Source: Candidatus Eiseniibacteriota bacterium
GTDB lineage: Bacteria > Eisenbacteria > RBG-16-71-46
Direction: 5' to 3'
Assembly (NCBI GenBank): GCA_963717505.1
Contig: OY970342.1
Span: 3,648,001 to 3,712,000 of the forward strand
Length of the DNA stretch: 64,000 bases
Of this stretch, positions 2,173-64,000 are shown piece after piece; positions within the stretch are counted from its first letter, which is position 1; every line of letters starts with the position of its first letter. The notes below the pieces were generated by a model, which saw only the letters and a list, made by a program, of their open reading frames with translations, was not told the DNA's origin and did no database searches. A program made the position numbers and the translations under genes.

Positions 2173-2895
2173 TTAGGCCACGCGGGCCAGGGCCCGCTCC
2201 TCGGACTCGCGCGGACGCGACTTGTGCGGACGCTCGTCACGGCTCGCGTGAGCAGGCTCGTCCTCGATCGCGTTCGCCGGCGCTTCCTCCAGAGTCAGAC
2301 GTAGGTTGCGCGCCTGATTCTCGGCCACCGTCAACATGACCGAGATGCGGCGCATGAAGTGGTTGAACAGCATGACCGCGGGCACCGTGATCAGGAGTCC
2401 GGCCGCCGTGGTGAACAGCGCCTCGGCGACGCCCGCCGCCACCACCGACGGCCCGGCCGAGCCGGTCCGCGCCATGTCGTGGAAGGCGCGCATGATGCCC
2501 CACACCGTGCCGAGCAGGCCGATGAGCGGCGCCGTATTGCCCATGGTTCCGATCAGGCCCAGGTTGCGTTCGAGCAACAGTCGCTGCTCGCTGAGCGCGA
2601 TCATCATCTTTTCTTCCCGGGCGGCCGGCGACAGGTGTGCGTTCAGCAGCAGGGCGGCCGCCACCGGTCCCGCCGGGTGTGGTGAGCTCTGGCACAACCA
2701 GGCCGCTTCCCGCACGCGCCCGGCCCGCACGTGCTCGGCCGCCTGCGCGATCAGCGCGGCCGGGTTCGCGCGACGCTTCCAGTAGTACATGCCACGCTCG
2801 ATGGCGAACCCGAGCGTGAGGACGCTACAGGCGAGAATCACGAGCATCACCGGGCTCGTGCGCATCGCCGTGATCCAATCGAAGTTCTCGAACAT
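2173..2895 (-). CDS. exbB: MotA/TolQ/ExbB proton channel protein
   Basis: APLIGLLGTVWGIMRAF and GVAEALFTTAAGL motifs. Confidence 0.93.
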   Translation of the reverse strand: MFENFDWITAMRTSPVMLVILACSVLTLGFAIERGMYYWKRRANPAALIAQAAEHVRAGRVREAAWLCQSSPHPAGPVAAALLLNAHLSPAAREEKMMIALSEQRLLLERNLGLIGTMGNTAPLIGLLGTVWGIMRAFHDMARTGSAGPSVVAAGVAEALFTTAAGLLITVPAVMLFNHFMRRISVMLTVAENQARNLRLTLEEAPANAIEDEPAHASRDERPHKSRPRESEERALARVA

Positions 2896-2925
2896 CGAGG
2901 GCCTCCTTGAGTGGCGAGCGGCCGG

Positions 2926-5900: not shown

Positions 5901-6072
5901 CGCGGCCGACGTCCTTGATTCGGAGGGGCGCGGTCTCCTGCGATGGCTTCCCGGCCGAAGTCGGCGTCGCCGCGACCACGGCGATCAGGGTCGCGCAGGC
6001 GAACGAAGTTGCGATCGCGGCGCGACGCATGGCCGACCTCGAAGGGCGAAGGTTCCGAAGCGCGCGATTCAT
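2926..6072 (-). CDS. Large periplasmic tetratricopeptide-repeat protein (BamD/YbgF-like repeats)
   Basis: Signal peptide followed by many TPRs ending in YP/FP..S; ATG at 6072 overlaps the upstream stop (ATGA). Confidence 0.88.
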   Translation of the reverse strand: MNRALRNLRPSRSAMRRAAIATSFACATLIAVVAATPTSAGKPSQETAPLRIKDVGREFEIDRWLPRAQRLEALERLEPSVESVLKQGAADERAAARFLAGEIRFERGDYRGAAESYQRAADEFGAKDFAADAAFARIEALEASGSDDEADREWLRWEKRFPHSPLRSEARLRAVWNAVRRGDVDEAAKRMKALSAAFPWTASDARVSLARATVAYLQGDAAAALAILGPRPPGAPATYLRALCLARRGDRLKSAALLQDVAERHPDSPLRDAALLAKANTFLSTGDFRSAAEEFDRVVRRVRDPGIKAEAELRGAGALFLTGAKDSAFTILQGVVARNAGNDIGARAQFLLGEALLARGQYAEAIVEYNRVLTSYFQHSVAASAQYRVGRCLDALGRRADATGTYQAVVRGYPLEPEAPAAAYLAGVGLIALSKPMAAAPYFQLVLDRYASRRDSSGLVVFASSEHRELVESALCLLEYAYHRSGDLGQLSGAPHLLLSRMPPSRSPWRAYALLIDADAMAAQARYPEAQASLEQLMRDHPDDAVSTSASRLLAWTYARQGRDSLAIATEERLLARGVHGSPEVVSGALLDIAHDRFNQRRYKEAAGAYEDFLRRYPKHPRRFVALYQSGLCYLRLDRAGDAVDRWEAMLRDSATAPLAERAWARTGDVYFQAERYDEAKRCYRGLLEHFAGSSAASLASLRLAQCDYNAGRDADAIQGFAHTAQQYPETPAAREAARGTERALYRLSQSAKGSQLLAQLVEQYPGSAFAADALFQIARRAYQEQRYTEAAEGFRRVVSQFPGYSGADQAQFLLADAYAQAGQRDEALRAYEQFVGFFPSSELSAMVSFRLGLLHFEGENPMQAAVAFTRVLEESTTTEVRSASRYNLALCNRLLGDTEAARAELERYLGEFRGDARSADVEYQLGDLDEVAGKFPEAVEHYQSALAASPKAALAVELQFRLGRCREQSGEAAAALRAYQQASTYPEKANPYRLSAVARCAALYEANRDYPRAVTAYRDIARHSKDQELVAAASGRASQLEAHTARR

Positions 6073-7328
6073 GGCGCCGGGACCAGAGGGACCGAACCCT
6101 GCGGTCCACCCGTCGAGATCTCGACCGTGTGGGTCGAACCGGCAATCGTCCGTCCGTGCTGATCGTGCACTTCGAGCGTGTAGCGGTACGTGCCGTCGGG
6201 TAGCGGCATCCCGGCCTCGTCCTTGCCGTCCCACAGGATGTGCGCGGGCGGCTGGCCGGCACCGCCGAAGCGGCGCACGACCTGGTCCGACTTGTTGAGG
6301 ATGGCGAGCGTCCAGTCGCGCGGCTGCGCCTTGGTGCGGGAGTTGAGGGCGATCTTGGTCACCGCGTGCTCACCGGTCGGCGAGAACACCGGAGGATCGG
6401 CCTGCGAGCTGGCGAAGAAGCCGCCGAACCGATAGGACAAACCGACGCGATGCGTGAGTCCGAGCGGGTGGTCGGCGACGCCGTAGTCGAGCTGGTAGGT
6501 CGAGGCGAGGCGGCAGGTGAACCCGCCAGCGGCACGATCCTGGTCGAAGCCGAGCCGCAGCGCGATCGTCGGCTGGATCCAGTACTCGGTACCGGCGCGC
6601 AGCTGCGTCCCCGGACCCGAGGCTTGATCGACCTCGGCGGTGATCAGCGCGCGGCCACCCAGCATCTGGTACGCGATGCCGCCGCGGAAGCCGGTCGGAT
6701 AGGTCTCTTCCTCGGTGCGTAGCGTGAGACTCGGGCCGCCCAGGTTCATCACCGCGCCACCCACGCGCAGTTCGGGCGTGAGCATCCACTGCCCGCCCAG
6801 GTCGAAGCCCACACCCTGAGCGCTGAAGTCCTCGATCTGCTGCTGGATGAGCTTGACGGTGCCGCCGACCGCGATCCGTTTCGACACGGCCTTCGAGGCG
6901 GAGAACAGGTACGCGGTCTCCCCCTGACTGAACGTGCCGAGCGGATCGTTCAGGTCGTTGGTCCGCTCGAACTCTCCCGAGCGCAACGCGAGGATGTTGA
7001 GCGCGAACGACGGCAACCGGTTTCCGGGAACCGCGAAGCCGAAGCTGTGGATCGCGGTGCCCTCGTAGAGCTGAGCGGTTTCGAACGCAAGGACGTTGCG
7101 GTCCATGCTCGACAGGCCCGCTGGATTCCACAGCACGCCCAGCGGCTCGTCCGCGGTGGCCACGAAGGCGCCACCCAATCCGAGCGCGCGTGCATTCGTG
7201 TAGCTGGTCAGCCACTCCCCGGGCGAACCGCCGGTGGCTTCCTGGGAACGCGCCGGGCCGGCCACCACCGTGGCGAAGATCAAGGCGAAACCCGCCAGGC
7301 GGCGCGAATGGTCAAGCGTTCGGTTCAT
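6069..7328 (-). CDS. PorV/PorQ-like outer membrane barrel with C-terminal FlgD Ig-like domain
   Basis: ARALGLGGAFVATADEPLGVLWNPAGL and THRVGLSYRF (PorV/FadL-like), followed by ILWDGKDEAGMPLPDGTYRYTL (FlgD-Ig). Confidence 0.82.
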   Translation of the reverse strand: MNRTLDHSRRLAGFALIFATVVAGPARSQEATGGSPGEWLTSYTNARALGLGGAFVATADEPLGVLWNPAGLSSMDRNVLAFETAQLYEGTAIHSFGFAVPGNRLPSFALNILALRSGEFERTNDLNDPLGTFSQGETAYLFSASKAVSKRIAVGGTVKLIQQQIEDFSAQGVGFDLGGQWMLTPELRVGGAVMNLGGPSLTLRTEEETYPTGFRGGIAYQMLGGRALITAEVDQASGPGTQLRAGTEYWIQPTIALRLGFDQDRAAGGFTCRLASTYQLDYGVADHPLGLTHRVGLSYRFGGFFASSQADPPVFSPTGEHAVTKIALNSRTKAQPRDWTLAILNKSDQVVRRFGGAGQPPAHILWDGKDEAGMPLPDGTYRYTLEVHDQHGRTIAGSTHTVEISTGGPQGSVPLVPAP

Positions 7329-7513
7329 GGGGATCCTCCTCAGCGAACGACCGCGATTCAGCGACGCATCACGCGCAACGTGGCTCCGTGTTGAAATCGT
7401 TCCATGGGCGCACGGAGGCCCAGCCCGGTTCCATCGATCCGGCCTGGTGCACAGTTCTCAGCGCGACCCGCCAAGGCAGCTTGTGTGCCGAGCAGGATTG
7501 CGCGGTGCATCGC

Positions 7514-7572
7514 GCAGAGTGCGAACGCCGGAGAACATTGGAGCTTCAGAGGGCTACGCCTTCGCACTCTGC
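7514..7572. repeat. 12-bp perfect inverted repeat in divergent promoter region
   Basis: GCAGAGTGCGAA (7514-7525) and TTCGCACTCTGC (7561-7572) with a 35-nt spacer. Confidence 0.7.
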
Positions 7573-7821
7573 AATCGAACTGGAATTTGGTTTTTTCCCC
7601 AACTCGAACCCGGCTTGCGAGCGCTGCCGGAGCGCGATCGTGCGTGCAATTGGAATTGCGCGACGACGCAAAACGCGCGTTCATGTGTGTTCGGAATCGG
7701 GATCTTTCAGTAGAAGGTCCAGCGATCGTTCACACCAAGTTCACGACACCGTCGCCCTTCGCCCGGCGGCGCGATCTCCGCTAGAGTGCCGCCCCATGTC
7801 CAGCGCTTGGAATCCAGTCTG

Positions 7822-10488
7822 ATGAGCGGATCGACGCCGCTGCCCACCCGCATCGGGCCTTATCCCATCGAGCGCGAAGTCGGGCGCGGCGGCATGGGCA
7901 TCGTCTACCTGGGGCGCGACACGCGGCTCGACCGCCCGGTGGCGATCAAGGTGCTGCCCGCGGCGTTCGCCAGCGACCCCGAGCGTCTGGCGCGATTCGA
8001 GCGCGAAGCCCGGCTCCTGGCCTCGCTCCACCATCCCAACGTCGCCGGGATCTTCGGGCTCGAGGAGTCGGGCGGACACCGCTTCCTGGTGCTCGAATAC
8101 GTCGAGGGCGAAACCCTGGCGCAGCGCATCTCCCGGGGCCCGCTGCCGGTGGACGAGGCCGTGGACGTCTGCCGGCAGATCGCGGCGGCACTCGAGGCAG
8201 CCCACGAAGGCGGAGTCATCCACCGCGACCTGAAACCCGGCAACGTCAAGCTGACGCCGAGCGGAGAGGTCAAGGTTCTCGACTTCGGCCTCGCCAAGGG
8301 CGGAGCGGGATCGGGCGCGAGTTCGGATCCCTCGCTCAGCGGCTCGCCGACCATCGCCCTGTCGCAAGCGACGGGCGTCGGAGTGATCCTCGGCACCGCC
8401 GCGTACATGAGCCCGGAACAGGCGCGCGGGCGTTCCGTGGATCGCCGCACCGACATCTGGTCGTTCGGCTGCGTGCTCTACGAATGCCTGACCGGGCGCC
8501 AGGCGTTCGCGGGCGAGACGATTTCGGATGTCATCGCCCTCATCCTACAGGGCACGCCTGATTGGAAGGCCCTGCCCGCGAATCTGCCGCAACGGCTGCG
8601 CGACCTGATGACACGCTGCCTGACCAAGGACGCGAAGCAACGCCTGCGTGACATCGGTGAAGCGCGCCTGATCCTCGAGGGCGGCGACGTGTCCTCGATG
8701 TCGGGCGTCGCCGCATCAGCCGCCGGTACCGCCCAAGCGCGACCGGCGCCGCGTCTCGCATACGCGCTGGCAGCGGCGTTCGCGCTCAGCACCCTCGGGC
8801 TCGCGGCGCTGTTGTTCCTGCGCCCCCCGAAGTCCGAGCCGGTTCTCAGGCTGACCCTGTCCGCGCCAACCACGACCTATTCCAGTCGCGACCCGTCCCT
8901 TGCCGCGATTTCCCCTGACGGCAGGATGGTCGTGATCGCCGCGGCCGATTCCGCGGGCAGCTCCGCCTTGTGGCTGAGGGCACTCGACGGCACCGACGGG
9001 CGCACTCTCCCGGGCACCGAGGATGGCGCGCTCCCGTTCTGGTCCCCGGACGGCCGACACGTGGTATTCGCCACTCAGGACAAGCTCAAGAAGCTCGACA
9101 TCCGGGGCGGAACTCCGGAGGTGCTGTGCTCGGTCGCGAGCTACGGGCGCGGGGGAAGCTGGGGATCGCAGGACGTCATCGTGTTCGCCGCCGGATCGGA
9201 AGGGTCACTGTTCAGCGTGTCGAAAGACGGTGGCACGCCGAAACCGGTCACCGTTCTCGACTCCACCGAAACCGGACATCGCTTCCCCCGCTTCCTCCCC
9301 GATGGCCGGCACTTCCTATTCGCGTCGATGCCAGCGCGCGGACTCCAGTTCGACATCTTCGTGGGTTCGATCGATTCGCCGCTGCGCGAGAAGCTCATGA
9401 TCGCCGACGGCACGCCGGTGTACGTGGAGCCGGGCTACCTGCTCTATGTGCGGAATGGACGGGTCGTCGCCCATCGCTTCGACCCCCGCTCCCGCAAACT
9501 GATCGGAGAGCCCGTGGCGCTGGTGGATGAGCCCCATCGGACCGAGTTCCTCGGATCGCCTGTGGTGATCGCGGCGCCGCACGGCCCGCTCCTTTACTAC
9601 AGGCACGTACCAGTTCAGACCAAGATCGTCTGGCTTGACCGATCGGGGCGCGAATCAGAACGACTGCCGCTGCCCCCCGGGCCCTACCAGAGCGTCTACC
9701 TGTCGCCCGATGGCGAACGGGCGGTTGTCGTACGGAGATCCTCGCCCAGTGAATCCGACCTTTGGCTGGTGGACCTCGAGGGCATGGCCATGACCCGGCT
9801 CACCCATGGCTCCGGTCTCGTGGACCGTCCAACTTGGTCTCCGGACGGGTCACGCATCGCGTTCGCGACCGATCGCGATGGACACTGGGACATCTACGAG
9901 AAGGCCGTGGATGGATCGGGTGCCGAGCAGCCGATTCTCCAGGGAGGGTCGCTCCTCAAATACCCGGGCGGCTGGTCTCCCGACGGCCACACGCTCGTGT
10001 TCGAGCAAATCAGCGAGAAGAATGGATGGGATATCTGGATGATGTCCACCCAGGGCGACCGTACTCCCCGCCCACTGCTCGCGACCTCGTTCGACGAGCA
10101 ATGGGCGGAGGTCTCGCCAGACGGTCGTTGGCTCGCCTATTCCTCGAACGAATCCGGCCGCCCCGAGGTCTACCTCCAGGCCTTTCCTGGTATGGGCCAC
10201 AAACACCAGATCTCCACGTCCGGCGGGTTTGCACCCAAATGGCGTTCGGACGGTCGCGAAATTGTCTTCGCCAGCAGTGCGGGTGCGGCGTTCCTCGAGA
10301 TCAGCCCCGACCGAGGACAGGGAATCGGAAATTCTCGCACGTTGGAGTTCGCTGACGAGATCGTCTGGGCGGATCTGACGCCAGACTTCAGCCGCCTGAT
10401 CGGCCTCGCGGGAGTGGCGTCGTCTCGCCCGACCGACGACCTCACGGTCGTGCTCAACTGGAGATCCGAGCTGGGCCGTCGCGAGTGA
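7822..10488 (+). CDS. Ser/Thr protein kinase with TM and C-terminal TolB/PD40 beta-propeller repeats
   Basis: GRGGMG, VAIK, HRDLKPGN, DFGLAK, YMSPEQ; repeated WSPDG/SPDG. Confidence 0.93.
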   Translation: MSGSTPLPTRIGPYPIEREVGRGGMGIVYLGRDTRLDRPVAIKVLPAAFASDPERLARFEREARLLASLHHPNVAGIFGLEESGGHRFLVLEYVEGETLAQRISRGPLPVDEAVDVCRQIAAALEAAHEGGVIHRDLKPGNVKLTPSGEVKVLDFGLAKGGAGSGASSDPSLSGSPTIALSQATGVGVILGTAAYMSPEQARGRSVDRRTDIWSFGCVLYECLTGRQAFAGETISDVIALILQGTPDWKALPANLPQRLRDLMTRCLTKDAKQRLRDIGEARLILEGGDVSSMSGVAASAAGTAQARPAPRLAYALAAAFALSTLGLAALLFLRPPKSEPVLRLTLSAPTTTYSSRDPSLAAISPDGRMVVIAAADSAGSSALWLRALDGTDGRTLPGTEDGALPFWSPDGRHVVFATQDKLKKLDIRGGTPEVLCSVASYGRGGSWGSQDVIVFAAGSEGSLFSVSKDGGTPKPVTVLDSTETGHRFPRFLPDGRHFLFASMPARGLQFDIFVGSIDSPLREKLMIADGTPVYVEPGYLLYVRNGRVVAHRFDPRSRKLIGEPVALVDEPHRTEFLGSPVVIAAPHGPLLYYRHVPVQTKIVWLDRSGRESERLPLPPGPYQSVYLSPDGERAVVVRRSSPSESDLWLVDLEGMAMTRLTHGSGLVDRPTWSPDGSRIAFATDRDGHWDIYEKAVDGSGAEQPILQGGSLLKYPGGWSPDGHTLVFEQISEKNGWDIWMMSTQGDRTPRPLLATSFDEQWAEVSPDGRWLAYSSNESGRPEVYLQAFPGMGHKHQISTSGGFAPKWRSDGREIVFASSAGAAFLEISPDRGQGIGNSRTLEFADEIVWADLTPDFSRLIGLAGVASSRPTDDLTVVLNWRSELGRRE

Positions 10489-11018
10489 GCGCCGCCAAGG
10501 AAACCCACGACCCGGGATCGATCGCTTTTCTCGAGCACGAGGGATTCGAGGGTTTTCGCACCGTGGCGCAATTGCACGCCGGCGGCTGCATGGAGATCCC
10601 GAACCTCCGGGGCATCTACGCGATGGTGCGTGAGTCGCTCGAACCGCCGGTGTTCCTGCCGAAAAGCCCGGCGGCGCGGTTTCGCGACACCGATCCGACC
10701 GTTCCGGTCGACGAGCTGAAGAAGCTCTGGGTGCCAGGCGCCCAGGTTCTCTACTTCGGTCGCGCCCGCGGACCCGGCGTGCGCACGCTGCTCAGGCAGC
10801 GCGTGAAGCGTTACCTGCGCTTCGGCTACGGGCGGCACGTCGCCCACTGGGATGGCAGGGCGATCTGGCAGCTGAGCGACCGCTCAGCCCTGCGGGTCGC
10901 GTGGATGCCGACGCCGGACGACGACCCGGCCCGCGCCGAGGAGGAGTACGAGGCCGGCTTCGAACGGCACTATGGCGCGTTGCCCTTCGCCAACCTGAAG
11001 CACGGGCGCGAGGACTGA
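10485..11018 (+). CDS. GIY-YIG-like protein (putative nuclease)
   Basis: GIY..., VLYFGRA, LRQRV, a late Glu and PFAN follow the GIY-YIG motif order; GTGA overlap with the kinase stop. Confidence 0.6.
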   Translation: MSAAKETHDPGSIAFLEHEGFEGFRTVAQLHAGGCMEIPNLRGIYAMVRESLEPPVFLPKSPAARFRDTDPTVPVDELKKLWVPGAQVLYFGRARGPGVRTLLRQRVKRYLRFGYGRHVAHWDGRAIWQLSDRSALRVAWMPTPDDDPARAEEEYEAGFERHYGALPFANLKHGRED

Positions 11019-53032: not shown

Positions 53033-53370
53033 CTACTCGGAGCGCAGCGCCATGAGGGGGTCGACGCGCGCGGCGCGCAGCGCCGGGCGCAGGCACCCCA
53101 GGGTTGCGGTGACCAGGCACAACGTTGCGGCAATGCCCATGGTCAGCAGGTCGTCGGGACGCACCCCGACCAATAGGGCGCTCATGCCCCGCGCCGCGGC
53201 ATAGGCGACGGCAACGCCGATCGCCATGCCGATCAGCGCGAGTGCCAGACCCTCGCGCAACACCAGACCGACGATGCCGGAGACCTGGGCGCCGAGCGCC
53301 ATCCGCACACCCAGCTCCTGCGAGCGCTTGGACACGGTGAAGCTCAGGAGTCCGTGAATGCCGAGTCCCC
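53033..53370 (-). pseudogene. C-terminal fragment of a MacB/FtsX (ADOP-type) permease
   Basis: GIHGLLSFTVSKRSQELGVRMALGA and PALRAARVDPLMALRSE; remainder absent. Confidence 0.8.
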
Positions 53371-53492
53371 GGTTCGGGAGTCCGACTTTCTCGTGGGCCG
53401 CGCCACGTGTTCTCATAGAGCTGTTCAGTTCCCCGGGCGAGTGTCTTCCTGGATTCCGGGGGACTACGATTCTGCATCCTCAGGAGGCCGAG

Positions 53493-53909
53493 GTGTCGCG
53501 CGCGCATTGCCGGAGTCGGCTGATGATCTCGCTGCTCGCCCTGCTCGCCGCCGGGCTGGCGTCATGCGGCGGAGGCGGCTCCTCGTCGCCGCCGACCGGG
53601 GGGACCCCGGGCGGGGGCAATCCCACCGCCCCCGCTCCGTTCCGACTGACGTTTCCAACCGCCGGGCGGTCGGTGACGATCGTCTTCCCCAACCCCGGAA
53701 CGTTCCCCTACCACTGCGAGGCCCATCAGGGCGACGGCATGGCGGGGGTGGTGATCGTTCACTCGAGTGGCGTCGATTCGATGGTGGTCAGCGTCGGCCC
53801 GGGCAGCAACCGAATTTTCAATCCGACATCGGTGACCATCAAACCGGGAGGATCCGTGCGCTGGGTGAACGCAGGAACCCGGAACGATCACACGGTCACG
53901 AGCGACTGA
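53493..53909 (+). CDS. Cupredoxin (plastocyanin-like) lipoprotein with permuted domain halves
   Basis: AGGAGG RBS, lipobox LASC; YHCEAHQGDGM comes before FNPTSVTIKPGGSVRWVN...HTVT. Confidence 0.85.
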   Translation: MSRAHCRSRLMISLLALLAAGLASCGGGGSSSPPTGGTPGGGNPTAPAPFRLTFPTAGRSVTIVFPNPGTFPYHCEAHQGDGMAGVVIVHSSGVDSMVVSVGPGSNRIFNPTSVTIKPGGSVRWVNAGTRNDHTVTSD

Positions 53910-53927
53910 CGAGTCCTCGACGCCGGG

Positions 53928-54371
53928 CTACTGGCCCAGCACGAAGCGAATTCCCGCCGCCCCGGCAATGTAGAAGTCGACATCGTCGAGCACCTGGATC
54001 CCGGGAGCGGCCTCGGCGAAGAGCTCGATCTTGGGCGACGGCATGAGCTGAAGGCCGATCGGAGCACGAATGGCGAGGAAGAATTCCTCACTGTCTTCGA
54101 GCGGGAGACCAAGGTCGACGCCGGGTCCGAAGTACCAGTCCAGGTTGTCATTGGTGGTCCCCAGCATCTTCTTGACCGTCCACATGTCGATCGTGCCGTG
54201 GATGAAGTCCTCGCTCCACGCCACGCCGATCGGCATCCGGTCGAAGCGCAGCGACAGTCCGACGTTCCCCGGGTATCCGAACACTGCACCAATCGCGGTT
54301 TCTGCGCGCACGGTTCCTACCGTAGCCAGCGTCAGCAGTGCCGCGGCCGAAACGATGACTGCACCTCTCAC
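53928..54371 (-). CDS. Small outer membrane beta-barrel protein
   Basis: Signal peptide VRA; RAPIGL, ELFAEAAPG, GIRFV strands. Confidence 0.75.
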   Translation of the reverse strand: MRGAVIVSAAALLTLATVGTVRAETAIGAVFGYPGNVGLSLRFDRMPIGVAWSEDFIHGTIDMWTVKKMLGTTNDNLDWYFGPGVDLGLPLEDSEEFFLAIRAPIGLQLMPSPKIELFAEAAPGIQVLDDVDFYIAGAAGIRFVLGQ

Positions 54372-54490
54372 TTGAACCTCCCGCGTGTGGGGACGAATTC
54401 CGGATGCCCTCCGGAAGAGGGAGTACGCTAGCCCCCTGGGGTGGCCAGAGCAAAAACTGGTTCCCGGGCCAGCTGGAACGGCGTCCGGCC

Positions 54491-55357
54491 CTACGCCCAG
54501 CGGTGGGGTCGGTCCTTCCTCTGTTCGAACCCCTGCTCGTCGCAGAACGCGAGCCAGCGATCCCGAGGCACGCCCCGCCAACGCAGGTCTTCGAGCGTTT
54601 CGCCCAACGGCACGTCACGCCGAAGCGTGGCGAGCCGGCGAAACAGCAACGCGTCGTCCATGCGCTCCCGAAGCGTGGTGGCCAAGCGGTCGGCGCCGCG
54701 CACCTTCACCTGCCAATGCGCCGGATCGTCAGGGATCGCTTCCAGGTGCTGCCAGCGGGCGAGCACCGTGGTCGCGGACTTCTCCCCCCACCCCGGGAGC
54801 CCCGGGTAGCCGTCGGAGCTGTCGCCGACCAGGGCCAGCCAGTCCGGGATCGAAGCCGGCGACACGCCGAACTTGGCTCGCACTCCGTCTTCGTCGTAGG
54901 TGATCTCGCGTCGGCGATCCCGTTGCACGATGGTGGTTCCGATCACGCACTGGGCGAGGTCCTTGTCGGGCGTGCAGATCACCACCTGTTCGACCGACTC
55001 GCCGAACCGAGAGGCCGCGGTCGCCAGCGCATCGTCGGCCTCGAACTCCACCATCGGCCAGACCACGACTCCCATGGCTTCGAACGCGCGTTCGGCCAGC
55101 GGGAATTGCGTGAGCAGATCCTCCGGAACGCCTTCCTCGGTTTTGTAGCCGGGCCACAGGTCGTTTCGGAAGCTGCGGATCACGTGATCGGTCGCGGCCG
55201 CCAGGTGCGTCACGCCCGGCTCGCGCAGGAGCAAGAGCGTCGTCCCGATCAGGCCACCGACCGCGCCCACCTCACGCCCGTCGGGCGCGCGCGCCGGGTC
55301 CACGCCGAAGTAGGCGCGAAACAACTCGTAGGTGGCATCCAAGAGATGGAGCTTCAT
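54491..55357 (-). CDS. 5'-3' exonuclease / flap endonuclease
   Basis: LLDATY, FRNDLWPGYK, EADDA, DKDL, LVGDSSDGYPGLPGWGEKSA. Confidence 0.93.
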   Translation of the reverse strand: MKLHLLDATYELFRAYFGVDPARAPDGREVGAVGGLIGTTLLLLREPGVTHLAAATDHVIRSFRNDLWPGYKTEEGVPEDLLTQFPLAERAFEAMGVVVWPMVEFEADDALATAASRFGESVEQVVICTPDKDLAQCVIGTTIVQRDRRREITYDEDGVRAKFGVSPASIPDWLALVGDSSDGYPGLPGWGEKSATTVLARWQHLEAIPDDPAHWQVKVRGADRLATTLRERMDDALLFRRLATLRRDVPLGETLEDLRWRGVPRDRWLAFCDEQGFEQRKDRPHRWA

Positions 55358-55484: not shown

Positions 55485-55841
55485 TCACTGCGGGATCGTC
55501 GTGAGGGCTCCGGCTTCGGTCGCGTGGATCGCCAAATGCTTGTCGAGGCCGAGCAACTCGACCACTGCGCGAGTCTGCTCCGATGGCTCGGCGAGGAACA
55601 GTGCACCCGCCTGCTCCCGGAACTGCTCGGTCAGCGAGAACAGAGCGCCGATTCCGGTCGAGCCGAGGAACGAAACACCGGCCAAGTTGAGGACGAGGTT
55701 CTGGCCCTGGGCCTGAACCGCTGCGCACCGGCGGATCAACGACGGCGCGGTGAAGCCGTCGAGCCGCCCGCGCAGCCTCAAGACCACGGCCCGTCCCTGG
55801 ACGGGACCGTCCTCGATCTGCAACTCCTCGGAGTTCATCAC
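55485..55841 (-). CDS. STAS anti-sigma factor antagonist
   Basis: LRGRLD, LVLNLAGVSFLGSTGIGAL, ELLGLD. Confidence 0.9.
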   Translation of the reverse strand: MMNSEELQIEDGPVQGRAVVLRLRGRLDGFTAPSLIRRCAAVQAQGQNLVLNLAGVSFLGSTGIGALFSLTEQFREQAGALFLAEPSEQTRAVVELLGLDKHLAIHATEAGALTTIPQ

Positions 55842-57910
55842 GCGGCGACCTCCTTGCCGAGCCTCTCGGGGTCGAACGCCATGGACACCAGATTCCCTTC
55901 GGGAGTCCCAGGGTAGTACGTCACGGTGCTCGCCGTCCGGTGCAGGATCTCCATCCCCAGTCCGCGACCCCGGCGTCTCACCTCAGAGTTCGTCAGGTCC
56001 GGGCGTTTCCACTCCTGCGAGTTGAAGGTGTTGCCCCAATCCCGGAGCAGGAAGTAGCCGGCCCCCATCGACGCGGGCTCGACGTCCTGATCCTGTTCGG
56101 CGACCCACCACAGCTCGAGGCGTAGGGCGTCGTTGCACCCATAGGCATGCTCCACGACGTTGGCCGCAGCCTCGTGGAGCGCCAGTTCGAGCGCTCCGAG
56201 CGCGGCCGCGCTCAGGTGTCGCGCCGGTGTCGAACGGACCAGCCAGTCGTCGATCCGACGCAGCGCCGCCAGGCTCGCGGGCAATACCAGCCTCGCCCCG
56301 CGGGCTTCCGCTTCGGCGAGCCGGGCGAGCCCCTCGCTCCACGACAGGCGGCCGGAGTCGGTCACGATGCCTTCGCGATCCCGCGCGATTACGAGGACCG
56401 TTTCGTCATCGCTCCGCGGGGCATTTCCACGCCACGACGCCACCGACTGCGAGAGTGCCGTCACCACCGCCCGGCTGCCGCCGCGTGCAGCGGGCGCGAC
56501 GGCCCGAGCCATGCGCTCGGCGCCATACTCGCCGGCGTTCTCGCCGACGGTTTCCGTCACGCCGTCCGTGTACTGGATCGCGACGTCCCCGGGTCCGAGC
56601 TGAAGGCGCACTTCTTCGAACGCGGTGCGGGACCTGGCCGTACGCACGATCCCGAGCGGCACGCCCTCGCCCCGATGCCATTCGGGTTCGGTGACTCCGT
56701 CGCGCAGCACCAGCAGCGGATGATGTCCGGCCGAAGCGAACACCAGTTCTCCGGTGCTCGGATCGAGGATTCCATAGAACATGGTGACGAAGCTTCCGCG
56801 TTCGATCATGGTGCCCATCTGGCGATCGAGTGCCACGAGCAACTCGGCCGGCGAGCGATGCACCGGCGCCAAAGCCCGCAGCAGAGCATGCAGCATCGCG
56901 GTGACCAGACTCCCGCCCAATCCCTTGCCGGCGACATCGGCGACCACCAATCCCATGCGACCGTCGGGCAGGTCCAGTGTCTGGTAGTAGTCGCCGCCGA
57001 CTTCGCTCGCCGGTTCCTGGCGGCCCTCGATGTGAAACGGACCCACCATGCGCTCGCGCGGGGGCAACAGGGACTTCTGGATCCGCTGCGCCAAGTCCAT
57101 CTCGTGAGCCAGCCGTTCCCGTTGGACCAGGTCCTGCTGCGCCAGCTCGAGTTGCCCGGCCATTCGATTCACCGTGTCGGCCAGAGCGCCGATCTCGCTC
57201 CGATCGCGCACTTCGAGGCGCGCCTTCAGGTCTCCGCCGCCGATGCGCTCGAGTCCGGCGCGCAGCGCGGCCACCGGGCGCAACACCAGGGACGACACGA
57301 CCAGCGCGGCGGCGATACCCAGCAGCACGAAGACCAGCAGGACCAGCGCCTGCTCCTGTCGCGCCTGCTCGATTCGATCGGCGATCGCCGACTGACGCAG
57401 GGCAATCCAGACGGTGCCCACCGAGCGGCCGTCGCCGTCGGCGACCGGCGTCGAGACCACGACCAGCTCACGATTTCCGGCAATCGTCTCGCCGGGGAGC
57501 GGCTCCGGCGCCTCGGACAACGCGGTGAGCCCCGAAGGCGGGACGAATGTGGTTCCCAAACGGCGCACGTCGCTGTCTCCCTGAATCACTCCGTCGCGGT
57601 CGGTGACCACGACGAACGCGATCTGCGACTGGCGTTCGAGGATCTGCTTGGCGAGCGGCAGGAGCGCCCACTCCGGGGTTTCGGTGAGCAGGGCGTCGGC
57701 GCCGACCAGCGCCACCTGGCGCGCCTGGAGCTGGAGCCCGGCCTCCATCTCGGCCGACAGCGCCCGGCGCGCATTGCGTTCGGTCACCGCGCCCACCGCG
57801 GCCACGACGGCCGCAACCAGCACCATCATGGCGAAGGCCACGAGCCAGCGGATGCTGTGCGTGATGCGCATCGGTCGCCCGGGACCGCGCATTCGGGTCG
57901 CCACGGTCAT
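55838..57910 (-). CDS. Membrane sensor: periplasmic domain, HAMP, SpoIIE/PP2C phosphatase and RsbW-like kinase
   Basis: Two TMs, HAMP EIGALA, VGGDYY, ADVAGKG, YTDGVTE, DDET; LHEAAANVVEHAY and GRGLG. Confidence 0.9.
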   Translation of the reverse strand: MTVATRMRGPGRPMRITHSIRWLVAFAMMVLVAAVVAAVGAVTERNARRALSAEMEAGLQLQARQVALVGADALLTETPEWALLPLAKQILERQSQIAFVVVTDRDGVIQGDSDVRRLGTTFVPPSGLTALSEAPEPLPGETIAGNRELVVVSTPVADGDGRSVGTVWIALRQSAIADRIEQARQEQALVLLVFVLLGIAAALVVSSLVLRPVAALRAGLERIGGGDLKARLEVRDRSEIGALADTVNRMAGQLELAQQDLVQRERLAHEMDLAQRIQKSLLPPRERMVGPFHIEGRQEPASEVGGDYYQTLDLPDGRMGLVVADVAGKGLGGSLVTAMLHALLRALAPVHRSPAELLVALDRQMGTMIERGSFVTMFYGILDPSTGELVFASAGHHPLLVLRDGVTEPEWHRGEGVPLGIVRTARSRTAFEEVRLQLGPGDVAIQYTDGVTETVGENAGEYGAERMARAVAPAARGGSRAVVTALSQSVASWRGNAPRSDDETVLVIARDREGIVTDSGRLSWSEGLARLAEAEARGARLVLPASLAALRRIDDWLVRSTPARHLSAAALGALELALHEAAANVVEHAYGCNDALRLELWWVAEQDQDVEPASMGAGYFLLRDWGNTFNSQEWKRPDLTNSEVRRRGRGLGMEILHRTASTVTYYPGTPEGNLVSMAFDPERLGKEVAA

Positions 57911-59785
57911 CGCTGGGTTCCAAACAGCTCGCGCGTGCGTTCTTTCCGCTCGCGGGCCCGCGCCAGGAAGCGTGCAGCGCGCGAATCCGTCGGATCCGCG
58001 CGTTGGGCTTTCTCCCAGTAGCTAACGGCAGTATCCAGCCGGCCGGCCGCGTAGGCGTCCATTCCGCGAGCCAGGTACTCGCGGTTGAGGTAGCGACCCG
58101 CGGCGGCATCGCCCGGATCCAGCGACAGCGCCAGCTCCCAGTAGCGAACCGCGTCGTCGGCTCGGCCCGCGCTCATCGCGGCGACCCCGCGCTTCACCAG
58201 CTGCTCGGCCTCGCGGCGATTGGCGGCGGAAGCGCTCGGTTGCGTCGGCGGAGACGGCGGGGCACCCGTCGCTTCGCGGTCGATCGCGGCCTGCCGTTCC
58301 TGCTCCTCGGTGCGCCGGGCGATCAGGACCTCGGTCCGCTCGAGCATGGCCGCGGCTTCGGCATCACTGGGGTTGGCCCGCACCAGAGCCGCAAAGCCGG
58401 CCCGAGCCCGCGCCAGATCTCCGGCGATCAGCGCATCGACCGAGGATCGGAATCGCGCGCCGCGATCCGCGTCACGCATTGCCTGGCGTTCCCCGGCCGC
58501 GCGCACGCGCTTCGCTCCCGCGACCGCAGCGGTGTCCTGGGGCGCGATCGCCAGCGCCCGGGTGTATGCGTCGGCGGCCGACACCAGGTCGGCTTCAGCC
58601 TCCCGCTCCCTGCCGAGCGCAACGTTGCCGCGCACGCCGAGCATGCGCACCCGCTGGTCGGCCGAGTCGAGGATGGCCGCGGTCGCCAAGAGGTCGAGCG
58701 CTTCCTCGTACGAGCGCTGGCCGATCGCCGTCTCGGCCCGCGCCACCAGATCGTCGAGACGCTCGGCGCCGCGCCGATCGAACTCGGATTCGAGCCGATT
58801 CTGGAATTCGCGCTCCGCTGCGTCTCGAGCCGCGGCCCGGCTCGCAGTCACGGTCGGTCCGAACGATTGCGTGAGCCCGACTCGGTGCACCGGCCCGAGC
58901 GCCACGTTCTCGAACGCATATCCGAACTCGAGGTTGCGCCAGGTCACGCCCGCGCCGGCCGTCAGCCGATCTTCGTGGAGGCCGACGCGCATCGCGAGCA
59001 GCCGGCGGACCAGGAGCTCGGCCCCCGCGTGCAATTTCGGCGACACTGTTTGCGAAGCGTCGCCATCCACGGCCACGGTCAGCTCCTGGCTGCCGACCCA
59101 GCCCCGCCACGCGAGTCCACCTCGCCAGGTGCGTGGATCGCGAACACTTTCGCGGTCGAGTCGCAGCGCGGGTTCCAGCGCATTGCGAATGCCGAGACCC
59201 GCGGTCAAACCCTCGAGCCATGACGCGCGGAAGCCGAGCGCCGGTCCGATCGCCACCAACACACCGAGGTCTCCCGCCAAGGCACTCGCTCCATATCCGC
59301 CCACGTCCTGACTCTGCAGCTTGAGCGAAGCACCGAGACTCCATGCGTCGTTGATCGGACGCGCATAGCCGACGGTGATTTCGGTTTCGGAGCTCGAGAA
59401 CTCGTCGCCCGAGACGTTGTTGCGCTCGTCCCGCGGCTCGACCCCGCCGACACCCACGCTGCGCACGCCGAGACCGAGCGAGCCCCAGCGCCAGCTGGGC
59501 GCCACCAGGGCGGCGTAGCTGTCGTGAGAATCGACTTCGACTCCCGCCGAGTGCGCGACTTCGTAGCCGAAACGCGACGCGAGCGCGAGCCCTGCCGGAT
59601 TCCAGGTCAGGGCGGCAGGATCGGTGGCGATCGCGCAGAACGCTCCACCCAGCGCCAGCGCCCGAGCGCCGGTGCCATTCGCGAACGGCGAACGCGTGCC
59701 GGCATCCTCGGCGGCGCGCGCCGACCCGGCCGTTCCGAGCTGCACGATCGCGAAGAGCGAGAGCGATCCCCGATACGATCTTCAT
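57907..59785 (-). CDS. PorV/PorQ-like barrel with C-terminal TPRs; apparent frameshift in the signal peptide near 59760
   Basis: GARALALGGAF, WNPAGL, VHRVGLTQSFG then TPRs; ATG 59785 overlaps the upstream stop but is out of frame with the body. Confidence 0.8.
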
Positions 59786-62700
59786 CGGCGCACCGCCACC
59801 TTGCGCAGGGCACGCGCGCTGGCGCCCGCGTCGTACTGCACCCGCAGCTCGGCGATGTAGACGCCGTTCCTCACGGTGTGACCGGCCCCGTTCAGACCGT
59901 CCCAGCGGTCGAGCTGTTGCATGCCGGCAGCGCGCGGCTCGCCGTCGGCCAGGGTCCGAACCGGCTCGCCCGCGAGCGTGAACAGGCGCAGCCAGACCCG
60001 GCCGTCGCCGTTCAAGTAGTACGCGAAGGACGTCGCTTCCCGGCCAGCGGCAAATGGATTTGGGAAGTTGGAGTAGCTTGCGGACAGTTCCAGCGGCCCG
60101 AACCCGCCGGCCTCGGTCCAGAGCGGGAAGGTCAGCCCAGCCGCGGGCAGCACCTGAATCTGGAGAACGCCGCCGCTCGGTTGCACGACGCCGACTCCGG
60201 AGGCGTCGAGGCCCACGCGAACCGTGCCGGACTCGAGTCCCGCCCGAGGGATGACGCTCACCTCGACTGTCCGTGAGCTGTCGGCATCGACCTCGAGTTC
60301 TGTGGCTCCGACCAGCGTCGCGGTCACCGAATCCGGCGTGAGCGCTCCTTGCGCCCACACCGCGCCGTCCACGCGCAGCAGGATTTCCGAGATCGTGGCG
60401 CCGAGAGCCTGATCGGTGAACGTGTGATCGGCGCCGCGCAGCGCGAGGTGGCGGACGCGAATCGATCCGGCTCCCGGCGCTGCCGGGTTCTCGAATCGAA
60501 GCGTGGCGATCGGGACTTCGCGCCCGTCTCCCGCCAACACGGCCGGCATCTCGGTCGCGAGCGAGGCCACCAGCGTCCGCGCCGGCGCCTGGACGTGCGT
60601 CAGGCCGGACGTGAACGGCAGCGGGCCCCCCTCCGGCACCACCACCGCGCGCGTCCCGAGATTGGCGTCATAGACGGAAATTCCCTCGCCGAACACCGAG
60701 AGCTCGAGGAAACCTTCGGGCGCGGCCGCCGAGATGTCCGCGCTCAGGTCGATCGTGGCGCTGTCGCCGGCAGCCAGTGTGCGACCGCCCACGTCGATGC
60801 CGGTGGCTTCGCCGCTGGTCGGCGGATCGCCGTTGCCCCCAGCGTCGACGCCATTCCAGCGCAGGCGCAGCGCGTCGAGGAACAAGGCGGGCGCAAGTGG
60901 TCGGCGCGCGTGATCGCGGCTGAGCACGATCAGGCTGTCGACTCGCAGCGGAGCGTCGCCGGGTCCGCCCGGATGGCGGAGCACCAGGGTCATGGCGCCG
61001 ATGCCCGCGTCCCCCGCGCGCACGCCCACCGGAAAGCGCGGCGTGCCGCGCACGACCACCTGATCGGCCGGCATCTCGACGATCACCGTCCCGCCGGGCA
61101 GCGGGTCGGTCGCGAACATCACGATCACCGGGTCGCGGGTAATGGCATCGCGCGCATCGAACAGCGTCGAGTCGGTGAGCCGCAGCCGGAACGCTCCGGC
61201 CGCCGCCAGGCTCGCGACGTCGGCGCTCACCAGCACGTCGACCGCCGTGTTGACCGGGACGCTGATCGCCGGGCTCAACAGCAGCGTGAGCTTGGGTCCG
61301 TCGACTGCGAGCACGGCGCGCGAGGCCATCGTCTGGAACCCGCTGCGCACCACGACGTGGCTGACGACGTCCGCCAGCAGCGCGAGGCGCGTGCCCAGCG
61401 TGTCGCTGGCGTCGAGCGCGAGTCCGCCGACGCGCACGTCCGAGGTGATGCCGCCGGCGCCGGGACTCAGCAGCCGGAAGGCCAGCATGGGAACGTCGAG
61501 CTGGCCGGGACCAACGTGAAGGTCGGCCGCCGGCAGCGCACTGACCTCGATGCGTGACGGACGCTCGAACACGCGAGCCAGTCCGGTTTGCACGGGGAAG
61601 CCGCCGGTCAGTCTCACCGCGACTTGAGCGCCGCTGGTCGCATCCTCCGCCACCAGCCACACGCTGTCCTCGATCGCGACCCGGAACGAAGGCGCGGTCG
61701 TGCTCGACTCGAGGTCGAGGCCGACCGTGAGCGTCACCGTCTCGCCCGCGTCGATCGGCACCGGAGTCGCGAGGGTCAGGTCGACCTGGGAGCCGCTGGT
61801 TTCGAGCGAGGTGCGCGACAGGCGTGTGATGGTCCCCTCGTTCACCACCACTCGCGCCAACAGAGAATCGGGAACGATCCCGGCGGCGAACTCGTCCGCG
61901 AGCCCGATGCGCAGCCCGAGGAAGCGGACCGGGGAACCCATCGCATTGGAGTTCGCCAGCTCCAGGTTGAACGCCACGATTCCGGTCTGGCCGCGGTTGA
62001 CCATCGGCGGCAGCGTGGACTCGAAGCTCCCGTCCAAATGGGTGACCTGATCGAAGATATGGTGTGGATCAGTCGCGGCATCCAGGCTGCGCCGCGGGAG
62101 GCCGCTCGGTCGCTCGGTGCCCTGCGCCCAGCCGGTGAGCACGACGTCGCCCGGCGTCGCCGCGCGATAGGTCCACACCAGCGTGTCGCGTTCGCCGGGC
62201 CCCAGGTCGACGCTCGCCGGCGACGGTCCGCTCTCGAAGTTCAGCGATCCGGTCCCGCTCTGTGCCAAACCCGAAGGCGTGACCGCCACCAGCGAATCGA
62301 CGCCGGCGTTGCGCACGACCATCGACACCGTGACCTGCTGGCCAGGGACGCTGGCGGAAGGCTGGATCTCGAGCGAGGCGAGCAGCGGCGAAGCGCTGAT
62401 GGTCAGCGTGGTCGGACCCGCCACGTCGGCGTCCAGTGGGCCGTCGTTTCCCGAGACCACCGTGATGCCCATCGTCGGGATGGCGAAGCGGACGGTCGCG
62501 GAGTCCGTCGGGCTGGCCGCGACTCGCACCGCGGCGAACACGCGTGCGCCGGTCGCGCCCAGAGGCACGGCCAGGGCCGTGATCCGCCAGCCCGCACCTG
62601 TCCAGCTGGCGGGCCCGAGGTCGACGTCGTCGCCGCTGCCCGGGGTGAACGCGCCGTCGCCGCCGTCCCGCCACCAGCGCACTTCGGCGAGGTCGTCGTT

Positions 62701-64000
62701 GTCGGCGGTGCCGAGGTTCGTGATTTCGATCCCCTGGAGCAGGTCGTCGGCCCATCCGTTGCGCGGGACGATCACGTCCATGGCGAGCACGGCCGAGTCG
62801 CCTGGAGCCAGGGACACCGGGGGTACGGCCAACGCGGCCAGCTGCGCCGCCACCATGCCGTCGACCGCGGCGCGGGCCCGTGAGTCGAGCGGCCAGCTCG
62901 CGACCACGCGCGTGGTGTCGCCCAGTCCGACATCGAGCGGGCCAGCGACCCGAGTCGACAAGGTGTCGCCGTCGGCGGCGGTGGTCAGCGCCACGTGCGC
63001 GGTGACGAAGAAGTGACGCGTCCCACTCGCGATCAGGGGAGCGCTGAACCCGGTGAACGAGGCGCGGCCACCGCTGAAGAAGCTGCTCGCGAGCGGCGGG
63101 TCGATGAGCGAGTCGCCGAGCACCCCATCGCCGTTGCCGTCCAGGCGCAGAACCAGTGCCTGAACGGCGGCGTCACGCTGCGCCGGCGTCCCGCCGATCC
63201 CGGCGTTTTCGACCGAGAGGCGATCCATGGCTTGATTGCTTCCGTAGCTGTTGGTCACCGAAAAGTGCAGCAGCGTCACGTCCCGGGCGCCCGGTCGCGT
63301 GACCACCGGTGGCAGCGGAGTCGCCGACAACGTCAGACGATTGGCGGTGCTCACCGTGCGCTCCGGCGCTTCGACCGCCAGGTCGAGCGGGCCGTCGTTG
63401 TTGCTCGACATGCCGACGCCGGCGTCGGGGAGCGCCGGCAACGCCAATCGAATGCTGCGTCCTTCGATCGCGAGGTCGCCGACGTCGACCGTCACCCAAA
63501 TGCGCAGGCCCTCGACCGGCACCGGCTCGCCGATCCCGGATCGAACCCAGCGCGAACCGCCGACGTAACTGAGCGCGCCGATCCTGCGGTCGCGATCAGG
63601 ATCGAACTCGCCACTCTTGTCGTCGTCGATCCAGGCGGTCATCCCCGTCAGGTCGGATCCGGCGAGCGCCGTACCACTGTTGACCACCTCGATGGTCTCG
63701 AGTTTGTCCTCTTCGTACCCATTGGCCGGCAGCACGACCCCGAGGGCCAGGTTGTCGTCGGTCCCCGCCAGGACGCTTCCCCACGACTTCTTGCTGATGT
63801 CGATCTGCGCGGCGACCAGGCCGTTGATCGGAAACGCGCCGGGAGGCGCCAGCGGAAACGTCGTGCCCTGGAACTGCTCGGAGGTCGAGAATTCGAGATC
63901 GCCTCCCGATTGAATCGCGAGGTCGAGCAGATCGCCGTCTCGAGCCCGGAGCGGAAGGTCGGTGACCACCAGGAATCGGGCGGAGTTCCCGGGTTGGATT
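59782..64000 (-). CDS. Giant repetitive secreted protein with FlgD/T9SS-like CTD (5' end outside window)
   Basis: Frame open to the window edge; internal repeats; CTD SNFPNPF...WDGLNGAGHTVRNGVY...RKVAVRR. Confidence 0.85.
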   Translation of the reverse strand, partial: IQPGNSARFLVVTDLPLRARDGDLLDLAIQSGGDLEFSTSEQFQGTTFPLAPPGAFPINGLVAAQIDISKKSWGSVLAGTDDNLALGVVLPANGYEEDKLETIEVVNSGTALAGSDLTGMTAWIDDDKSGEFDPDRDRRIGALSYVGGSRWVRSGIGEPVPVEGLRIWVTVDVGDLAIEGRSIRLALPALPDAGVGMSSNNDGPLDLAVEAPERTVSTANRLTLSATPLPPVVTRPGARDVTLLHFSVTNSYGSNQAMDRLSVENAGIGGTPAQRDAAVQALVLRLDGNGDGVLGDSLIDPPLASSFFSGGRASFTGFSAPLIASGTRHFFVTAHVALTTAADGDTLSTRVAGPLDVGLGDTTRVVASWPLDSRARAAVDGMVAAQLAALAVPPVSLAPGDSAVLAMDVIVPRNGWADDLLQGIEITNLGTADNDDLAEVRWWRDGGDGAFTPGSGDDVDLGPASWTGAGWRITALAVPLGATGARVFAAVRVAASPTDSATVRFAIPTMGITVVSGNDGPLDADVAGPTTLTISASPLLASLEIQPSASVPGQQVTVSMVVRNAGVDSLVAVTPSGLAQSGTGSLNFESGPSPASVDLGPGERDTLVWTYRAATPGDVVLTGWAQGTERPSGLPRRSLDAATDPHHIFDQVTHLDGSFESTLPPMVNRGQTGIVAFNLELANSNAMGSPVRFLGLRIGLADEFAAGIVPDSLLARVVVNEGTITRLSRTSLETSGSQVDLTLATPVPIDAGETVTLTVGLDLESSTTAPSFRVAIEDSVWLVAEDATSGAQVAVRLTGGFPVQTGLARVFERPSRIEVSALPAADLHVGPGQLDVPMLAFRLLSPGAGGITSDVRVGGLALDASDTLGTRLALLADVVSHVVVRSGFQTMASRAVLAVDGPKLTLLLSPAISVPVNTAVDVLVSADVASLAAAGAFRLRLTDSTLFDARDAITRDPVIVMFATDPLPGGTVIVEMPADQVVVRGTPRFPVGVRAGDAGIGAMTLVLRHPGGPGDAPLRVDSLIVLSRDHARRPLAPALFLDALRLRWNGVDAGGNGDPPTSGEATGIDVGGRTLAAGDSATIDLSADISAAAPEGFLELSVFGEGISVYDANLGTRAVVVPEGGPLPFTSGLTHVQAPARTLVASLATEMPAVLAGDGREVPIATLRFENPAAPGAGSIRVRHLALRGADHTFTDQALGATISEILLRVDGAVWAQGALTPDSVTATLVGATELEVDADSSRTVEVSVIPRAGLESGTVRVGLDASGVGVVQPSGGVLQIQVLPAAGLTFPLWTEAGGFGPLELSASYSNFPNPFAAGREATSFAYYLNGDGRVWLRLFTLAGEPVRTLADGEPRAAGMQQLDRWDGLNGAGHTVRNGVYIAELRVQYDAGASARALRKVAVRR

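Follow-up and report, generated by a model that had tools for sequence, protein, structure and literature searches.

In type IX secretion systems (T9SS), outer-membrane barrels of the PorV/PorQ family hold certain proteins permanently at the cell surface through their C-terminal domain (CTD), as in the PorU-PorV and PorZ-PorQ pairs of the attachment complex. Partner switches with fused or membrane-bound components are known from Rv1364c of Mycobacterium tuberculosis, SiaABCD of Pseudomonas aeruginosa, SypE-SypA of Vibrio and RsbU of Chlamydia, and some partner switches act on targets other than sigma factors. A connection between a surface cargo and a cytoplasmic response has been described for PorA of P. 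gingivalis, a T9SS CTD cargo which is reported to be bound to PorV and to activate the inner-membrane sensor PorY (PMC7712824, PMC12152298). Here we describe a four-gene operon on the minus strand of a 64,000-nucleotide stretch of DNA, hereafter the window (contig OY970342.1, positions 3,648,001 to 3,712,000), from Candidatus Eisenbacteria, an uncultured soil lineage. The operon occupies window positions 55485..64000 and encodes a large secreted protein, a PorV/PorQ-like barrel with a tail of tetratricopeptide repeats (TPR), an inner-membrane sensor and a STAS protein. Our tentative reading, to which we assign a probability of about 0.4, is that the locus is one copy of a conserved envelope-spanning signaling operon that takes its input from the surface protein and the barrel.

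The comparison with the PorA-PorV-PorXY/SigP pathway is the closest in outline: there too a CTD cargo is reported to sit on PorV at the surface and to signal to a sensor of the inner membrane that has a periplasmic portion. PorA is small, however, PorV is a general shuttle without a TPR tail, and cargo, barrel and sensor are not encoded in one operon, whereas the barrel in the window appears dedicated and is fused to about 310 TPR residues. The output differs as well, since the histidine kinase PorY acts on a response regulator and an extracytoplasmic function (ECF) sigma factor, in place of which a partner switch or an HD-GYP enzyme is found here. The PorA case therefore provides a precedent for cargo-to-sensor signaling and at the same time a rival route, in which the CTD itself is the ligand. 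The PorU-PorV and PorZ-PorQ pairs share the pairing of barrel and CTD with our locus, but their barrels have neither a periplasmic TPR domain nor a linked sensor. Among the partner switches, Rv1364c and SypE resemble the window sensor in combining PP2C and kinase in one polypeptide, and SiaA and chlamydial RsbU in placing a periplasmic sensing domain and HAMP before the PP2C domain. In none of these systems do a barrel of the outer membrane and a secreted surface protein belong to the encoded set, and no sigma or anti-sigma target is evident in the system described here.

Two further systems show partial likeness. In FecA-FecR-FecI an outer-membrane barrel with a periplasmic extension addresses an inner-membrane protein, and in LapA-LapE-LapD-LapG a HAMP protein and cyclic di-GMP (c-di-GMP) are linked to a large adhesin held in a pore of the outer membrane. 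In contrast to both, our barrel is FadL/PorV-like and not TonB-dependent or TolC-like, and the operon encodes neither an anti-sigma factor nor a periplasmic protease; the cytoplasmic enzymatic domains moreover imply outside-in signaling, unlike Lap. Family searches detected no TonB-dependent transducer, anti-sigma factor or ECF sigma factor among the four products, nor was any sigma factor seen among them. The system may work like TonB-dependent cell-surface signaling, of which it is not a member. We also searched the literature in full text and found no paper on Eisenbacteria with type IX secretion or on PorV with partner-switching. Queries for partner switches with HAMP or outer-membrane parts returned classical systems only, and queries for PorV/PorQ with tetratricopeptide returned P. 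gingivalis T9SS papers, the PorA work among them. An earlier reading of this DNA, made from its letters only (below, the sequence-only reading), had stated that its author knew of no described system with this layout. We likewise did not find the layout in print, but the idea behind it has a precedent in PorA-PorXY (PMC7712824, PMC12152298). All component families are known; their combination, in which a dedicated TPR-armed barrel and a large CTD cargo are joined by an sCache-HAMP sensor whose outputs can be exchanged, was not found described.

We assessed the conservation of the operon in an evenly drawn sample of 151 genomes of the phylum (118 of high quality, 72 genera) and in a wider scan of 185,579 species genomes, which yielded 23 loci. 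In the phylum sample the barrel was scored as present at E ≤ 1e-50 and the sensor when its first 260 residues matched at E ≤ 1e-27. The tallies count G026, an unpublished genome on which no conclusion depends by itself, as one positive and, as related genomes are not independent, are given as plain counts only. The barrel is present in 36 genomes of the sample, corresponding to 27 of the 118 high-quality genomes and 25 of the 72 genera. The sensor module was detected in 35 of these 36 genomes, and in the exception, G029, the contig ends inside the barrel. At 31 of 37 barrel places the sensor lies directly downstream on the same contig and strand, and the other six places are at contig breaks. 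Co-occurrence of homologs across genomes had been proposed as a check on the sequence-only reading, and its outcome is favorable, barrel and sensor being found together and adjacent to each other. Only one of the 115 barrel-negative genomes, G045, showed a strong sensor match. In this genome of 56% GC, locus L074 (G045:C35:40001-58000) carries the sensor, STAS and fragments of the GAF kinase, and neither a barrel nor a large protein lies close to them.

A second copy within the same genome and eight loci of relatives show the same order of large protein, barrel-TPR, sensor and STAS. We found it in G030, G022, G011, G007, G024 and G001, partially at contig ends in G005 and G029, and across the 23 loci of the species-genome scan wherever the contig permits. 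The related contigs are labeled Candidatus Eisenbacteria / Eiseniibacteriota or Krumholzibacteriota, together with a few bins carrying other labels. An arrangement conserved to this extent is far beyond chance. The second copy (L034, G000:C1:3731137-3741528), situated about 30 kb away, is complete, with an in-frame barrel start and a GAF histidine kinase, and shares 40–49% identity per protein with the window copy. In the sensor tree the two copies belong to different clades.

Considerable variation was observed at the output end. At 15 of 18 partner-switch loci for which downstream sequence is available, the STAS gene is directly followed by a gene for a soluble GAF-HisKA-HATPase_c kinase, often with a 4-nt overlap. 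This kinase is present in the closest ortholog, G093, and in the second copy and is missing from the window as well as from L049 and L065; the genome holds a single ortholog of it, that of the second copy. At five loci (L048, L055, L059, L060 and L064) an sCache_3_2-HAMP-HD_5 protein with a GYP motif follows the barrel and replaces PP2C, kinase and STAS. The same five loci retain the large protein, the barrel-TPR protein and the sCache-HAMP module. The sensing module thus keeps its association with barrel and large protein even where the output has been exchanged, and we regard this as the strongest comparative argument that its input is tied to these two proteins. A tree of the sensing module had poor resolution and did not reject one single origin of the HD-GYP output (p-AU 0.47). 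At L057 a second large-protein gene (6415-10929, minus strand) lies convergent to the kinase gene, an arrangement that suggests two systems back to back.

The sensor gene (55838..57910, minus strand) encodes a protein of 690 amino acids (aa). Pfam matches and two hydrophobic segments visible in the translation indicate an inner-membrane protein with a transmembrane segment, an sCache_3_2 domain, a second transmembrane segment, HAMP, a PP2C domain (SpoIIE) and an RsbW-like kinase domain (HATPase_c_2). The predicted periplasmic sCache_3_2 domain (residues 56-184; 57359..57745, minus strand) is conserved across both output types, including a motif around P79-E80-L83-P85. The SpoIIE match reaches E 6.1e-42, and the GGD, ADVxGKG, TDG and DD motifs are kept in the alignment of all 17 partner-switch-type sensors. 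All 17 likewise keep the N, G1 and G2 boxes (E..N..EH, D.G, GRGLG) of the kinase domain, which matches at E 6.6e-15. SiaA PP2C (6k4e) and Rv1364c (3ke6) were found as relatives in the PDB. The last gene (55485..55841, minus strand) encodes a single-domain STAS protein of the anti-sigma-factor-antagonist type (PF01740, E 3.1e-20; TIGR00377). Its predicted phospho-acceptor Ser61 (codon at 55659..55661, minus strand) is invariant in 17/17 orthologs and, in the alignment with SpoIIAA (chain 1th8_B), falls on the first Ser of the DSSG motif, which we take to be the phospho-acceptor of that protein; the same residue is Ala in 1tid_B. Domain matches and intact motifs thus bear out the bifunctional PP2C/RsbW HAMP sensor with a STAS protein which had been recognized in the sequence-only reading, and its assignment of one predicted product to each compartment agrees with the domains detected and with the model of the barrel.

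The frame of the barrel-TPR protein extends over 57907..59781 on the minus strand (stop to stop, 624 aa) and was assigned by NF033709 and TPR matches. Residues about 28-310 (58852..59700, minus strand) correspond to a 14-strand beta-barrel of the PorV/PorQ family by profile, structural model and Foldseek search. The PorV_fam model NF033709 matched residues 36-306 with 97.7 bits against a cut-off of 90, whereas the equivalog cut-offs were not reached either for PorV (NF033710, 21.1 versus 250 bits) or for PorQ (NF033711, 56.8 versus 220 bits). The window barrel represents a separate PorV/PorQ subfamily with a TPR tail. The model of the protein, built from an alignment of 20 sequences, has a mean predicted local distance difference test score (pLDDT) of 87.6, and its 14 long strands fall within residues 71-307. 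Its best Foldseek matches are 8gl6_F and 6h3i_F, both PorV, with TM scores of 0.62–0.66 on the target, followed by FadL-family channels; PorV was also the best PDB match by sequence, its chains being found with a profile of the barrel family (E 7.4e-7). The helical tail (57910..58851, minus strand), assigned from Pfam TPR matches and the model, starts with a helix of 44 residues followed by TPR-like helix pairs up to residue 620, and helices 311-620 mostly show pLDDT values above 90. TPR_2, TPR_1 and TPR_14 matched at residues 525-617. The last TPRs are the best-conserved repeats of the tail, with the second-lowest mean distance among seven stretches compared. Given the usual topology of such barrels, the tail of about 310 residues would be located in the periplasm. 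Public annotations list the protein as "PorV/PorQ family protein" or "TPR repeat protein". The earlier description as a PorV-like barrel with a TPR tail is therefore supported by a family score above cut-off, by PorV as the top fold match and by the C-terminal repeats.

The large secreted protein is encoded at 59782..64398 on the minus strand, of which 59782..64000 lie in the window and 398 bases beyond it, as determined by extending the frame in the genome. It starts with an ATG at 64398 and comprises 1538 aa including a signal peptide. The sequence-only reading had called it a giant CTD surface protein; a secreted protein with an FlgD_ig/T9SS-like CTD is what we find, but at this length it is large rather than giant. 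In an AlphaFold model the last 1200 aa (mean pLDDT 88.1) consist entirely of strands, forming a string of beta-sandwich domains that ends in a small sandwich. Foldseek returned generic Ig/MG-domain arrays only, with TM scores of about 0.1, and no Pfam family was assigned to the body of the protein. BLAST self-comparison at E 1e-3 did not detect internal repeats; the consensus of the orthologs showed one module used twice. In a language-model atlas its neighbors are hypothetical FlgD_ig/CARDB/Por_Secre_tail proteins from related candidate phyla. The CTD (59785..60114, minus strand) was recognized as FlgD_ig and T9SS-sorting-like. Of 17 orthologous CTDs, 16 matched FlgD_ig at E ≤ 0.01; for the window copy the score was 17 bits, with the cut-off at 27. 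Weak whole-domain matches to the C-terminal end of PorU (E 7.4e-4, NCBIfam, and E 0.027) and a weak NCBIfam match to that of a T9SS-dependent protein were also obtained. These last 110 residues are the best-conserved part of the protein, with a mean column identity of 71% compared to 53% over the full alignment.

It is plausible that this genome encodes a T9SS-like export route. SprA was matched with 226 bits against a cut-off of 200, a PorU-like gene (356 bits, below the cut-off of 420) adjoins a PorV-like gene, and the C-terminal domain of PorU has more than 50 further matches elsewhere in the genome. The divergent upstream neighbor of the operon (window-equivalent 65748-67430, plus strand; L002:13748-15427) encodes a protein of 560 aa with a PA domain, which also ends in FlgD_ig and is therefore another likely cargo of the same route. 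We considered whether every PorV-like barrel of this genome is placed beside a CTD protein and rejected this, as such neighbors are confined to the PorU/PorV-like pair and both copies of the operon. A second PorV/PorQ barrel in the window (6069-7328, minus strand; 109 bits, cut-off 90) has a FlgD_ig domain of its own at the C-terminus. Next to it come a TPR protein of 1102 aa (2926-6234) with weak PorW/SprE and YbgF/BamD-like matches and then a MotA/ExbB/TolQ gene (2173-2895), and a Ser/Thr kinase with TolB-like propeller repeats (7786-10488, plus strand) is encoded divergently. Barrel and TPR partner thus recur at 2173-7328, here as separate genes beside a proton-channel gene.

We inspected the gene junctions, for which three 4-nt stop/start overlaps had been claimed. 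The ATGA at 57907-57910 between barrel and sensor was confirmed, and this overlap is kept in 7/7 complete loci. At 55838-55841 the sequence reads GTGATG, so that sensor and STAS overlap by 4 nt only with a GTG start and by 1 nt with an ATG start, which is the one favored by alignment of STAS with its relatives. The third overlap, at 59782-59785, is out of frame. The ATG of the window at this position lies in another frame than the PorV-homologous frame, which continues the stop of the large gene in the same phase; the first in-frame start is a GTG at 59745 and leaves no signal peptide. At all eight homologous loci inspected, an ATGA junction (59782..59785 in the window, minus strand) joins the stop of the large gene to the conserved barrel start: an in-frame CGATGA opens a signal peptide that ends just before a conserved A-[DE]-D-[AG]-G-T. 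The two closest database relatives of the barrel (P0002 and P0003; 82% and 78% identity) also have a Met and a signal peptide at their N-terminus. From the in-frame CGATGA and the signal peptide in these relatives we conclude that the window copy carries one extra base, absent from every relative inspected, in the part of the barrel gene that codes for the signal peptide, at about 59751..59771 (minus strand), as located by three-frame reading and the N-termini of the relatives. The barrel start which the sequence-only reading had placed at the ATG of 59782-59785 is accordingly frameshifted in this assembly.

The nature of this frameshift matters for how the window copy is judged. Seven public sequencing runs contain small shares of the stretch, and contigs from four of them cover 59300-59653, outside the frameshift site. 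SprA and the PorU-like and PorV-like genes are frame-split too (G000:C1:2397432-2401563 and 2957688-2962381), and the genome, a single contig, reaches a completeness of only 86.68%. For these reasons we consider an assembly indel probable rather than a true lesion; rpoB and rpoC are intact, which points away from such an indel at the barrel start. The surrounding region has a GC content of 67–72%, and third-position GC of the four genes is 0.80–0.86, as typical for coding sequence.

Based on these observations the following route can be envisaged. The beta-sandwich protein of about 1500 aa would be exported via a T9SS-like pathway through its CTD and held at the surface by the dedicated neighboring barrel, by analogy to PorU and PorZ on PorV and PorQ. 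The barrel is predicted from the model and the usual topology to extend its helical/TPR arm of about 310 residues into the periplasm. There the sCache domain may take its input from the pair of surface protein and barrel, likeliest by contact with the TPR arm or the CTD, as the conserved linkage suggests. Via HAMP the sensor would then set the balance between its own PP2C and RsbW-like kinase activities on Ser61 of the STAS protein, for which the intact motifs argue. In the full system STAS may control the soluble GAF histidine kinase encoded next, although we know of no GAF histidine kinase as a partner-switch target, and in the sister variant the sensing module would drive an HD-GYP c-di-GMP phosphodiesterase instead. 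A bolder version, which we regard as rather unlikely, makes the PorV-like barrel itself the signal transducer: its TPR arm, spanning the periplasm, would touch sCache directly, and load, ligand binding or loss of the surface protein would be passed on to STAS phosphorylation and the histidine kinase, or to c-di-GMP hydrolysis.

Several findings weigh against an envelope-spanning signaling operon. Gene linkage cannot separate a signaling complex from an operon that simply includes a regulator of its own. G045 shows that the sensor can exist alone, and the system is patchy, being confined to 36 of the 151 genomes and to 25 of the 72 genera. In an analysis of distance correlation between domains at 15 loci, the partial correlation of sCache with the barrel was a modest 0.28 and with the TPR parts 0.23 to 0.28, and no clear specific signal of sCache with TPR parts or CTD emerged (sCache-CTD -0.06); we let this analysis count neither for nor against the proposal. 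On the secretion side, none of the curated T9SS-CTD models (Por_Secre_tail / TIGR04183) matched the large protein or the orthologous CTDs at E ≤ 0.01. The GldM and GldN models gave no match in the genome, though the control genomes were silent too, and GldK reached only 25.6 bits. SprA is split into at least five collinear pieces in alternating frames, and the PorU-like and PorV-like genes show one frame change each, which could be due either to assembly indels concentrated in some genes or to real decay. The window copy itself has no kinase gene, a frameshifted barrel start and a sensor on a long branch (1.12 compared to a median of 0.46), and it may be a decaying copy.

The alternative that fares best, though in our view still improbable, is that the genes are co-transcribed and mechanistically separate. 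The sCache domain would bind a small molecule, the partner switch or HD-GYP enzyme would tune surface behavior including the large protein, and the barrel-TPR protein would serve only secretion, anchoring or envelope attachment. Such a division is in line with sCache_3_2 being a ligand-binding module of many sensors and with the match of the window sensor to DcuS/MalK-type kinases over the sCache part (E 3.8e-10). It is also in line with the retention of sensor and STAS without barrel and large protein in G045, and with the resemblance of the TPR tail to the TPR domain of the periplasmic assembly factor BepA (E 3.8e-05). It does not readily explain why sensing module and barrel occur together and adjacent in a near-perfect manner (35/36 genomes), why their linkage survives an exchange of the output, and why translational coupling is conserved.

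Somewhat less probable still is a secretion feedback of the PorA type, in which the periplasmic CTD is the ligand of sCache, the sensor gauges cargo awaiting export or anchoring, and the TPR tail is a chaperone or usher and not a relay. The CTD of P. gingivalis PorA is reported to bind PorV and also PorY, the latter in the periplasm, and thereby to activate PorXY-SigP (PMC12152298). In the system described here no part is better conserved than the CTD (mean distance 0.62; 71% column identity, as above), and the TPR tail weakly matches the secretion chaperones LcrH/SycD (E 0.0012). PorY and the window sensor belong to different families, however, and the partial correlation between sCache and CTD is about zero, albeit in a weak analysis. 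We consider it quite unlikely that the window copy is a decaying, non-functional duplicate, in which a real frameshift removed the signal peptide, the kinase was lost and only the copy about 30 kb away is active, because the frameshift, the missing kinase gene present in G093 and in the second copy, the long terminal branch of the sensor and the intact rpoB and rpoC genes, by which indel errors are not everywhere in the assembly, are opposed by uninterrupted frames of 1538 and 690 aa with coding-type third-position GC (0.84–0.86) and all catalytic motifs, by the frame-split SprA, PorU-like and PorV-like genes, by a completeness on a single contig that fits assembly indels, and by L049 and L065, which likewise have no kinase gene.

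The operon is flanked upstream by a gap of 770 bases and divergent genes and downstream, after 127 bases, by a 5'-3' exonuclease gene. A promoter and terminator scan of the operon and the upstream gap gave nothing useful. Further downstream, at 53033-54600 (minus strand), only the C-terminal domain of an FtsX permease was detected, in a frame of 127 aa, and about 1.1 kb upstream of it is without a clean frame. A Pfam search with four frames at 53565-54618 for a broken permease gene gave no match; the stretch may be another gene broken by indels.

In summary, we favor, as a tentative reading, a conserved envelope-spanning signaling operon with input from surface protein and barrel. If its parts interact, the biology of the T9SS would include sensing of the surface in addition to secretion, and input of a new kind would be added for partner switches and HD-GYP enzymes. 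From the five-gene form, a histidine kinase emerges as a possible direct target of STAS. An interaction of the parts would also offer a first mechanistic approach to the way in which bacteria of an uncultured soil phylum monitor their own surface. Should the barrel indeed act as the transducer, it would be the first T9SS anchoring barrel to serve as the outer-membrane half of a cell-surface signaling pathway.

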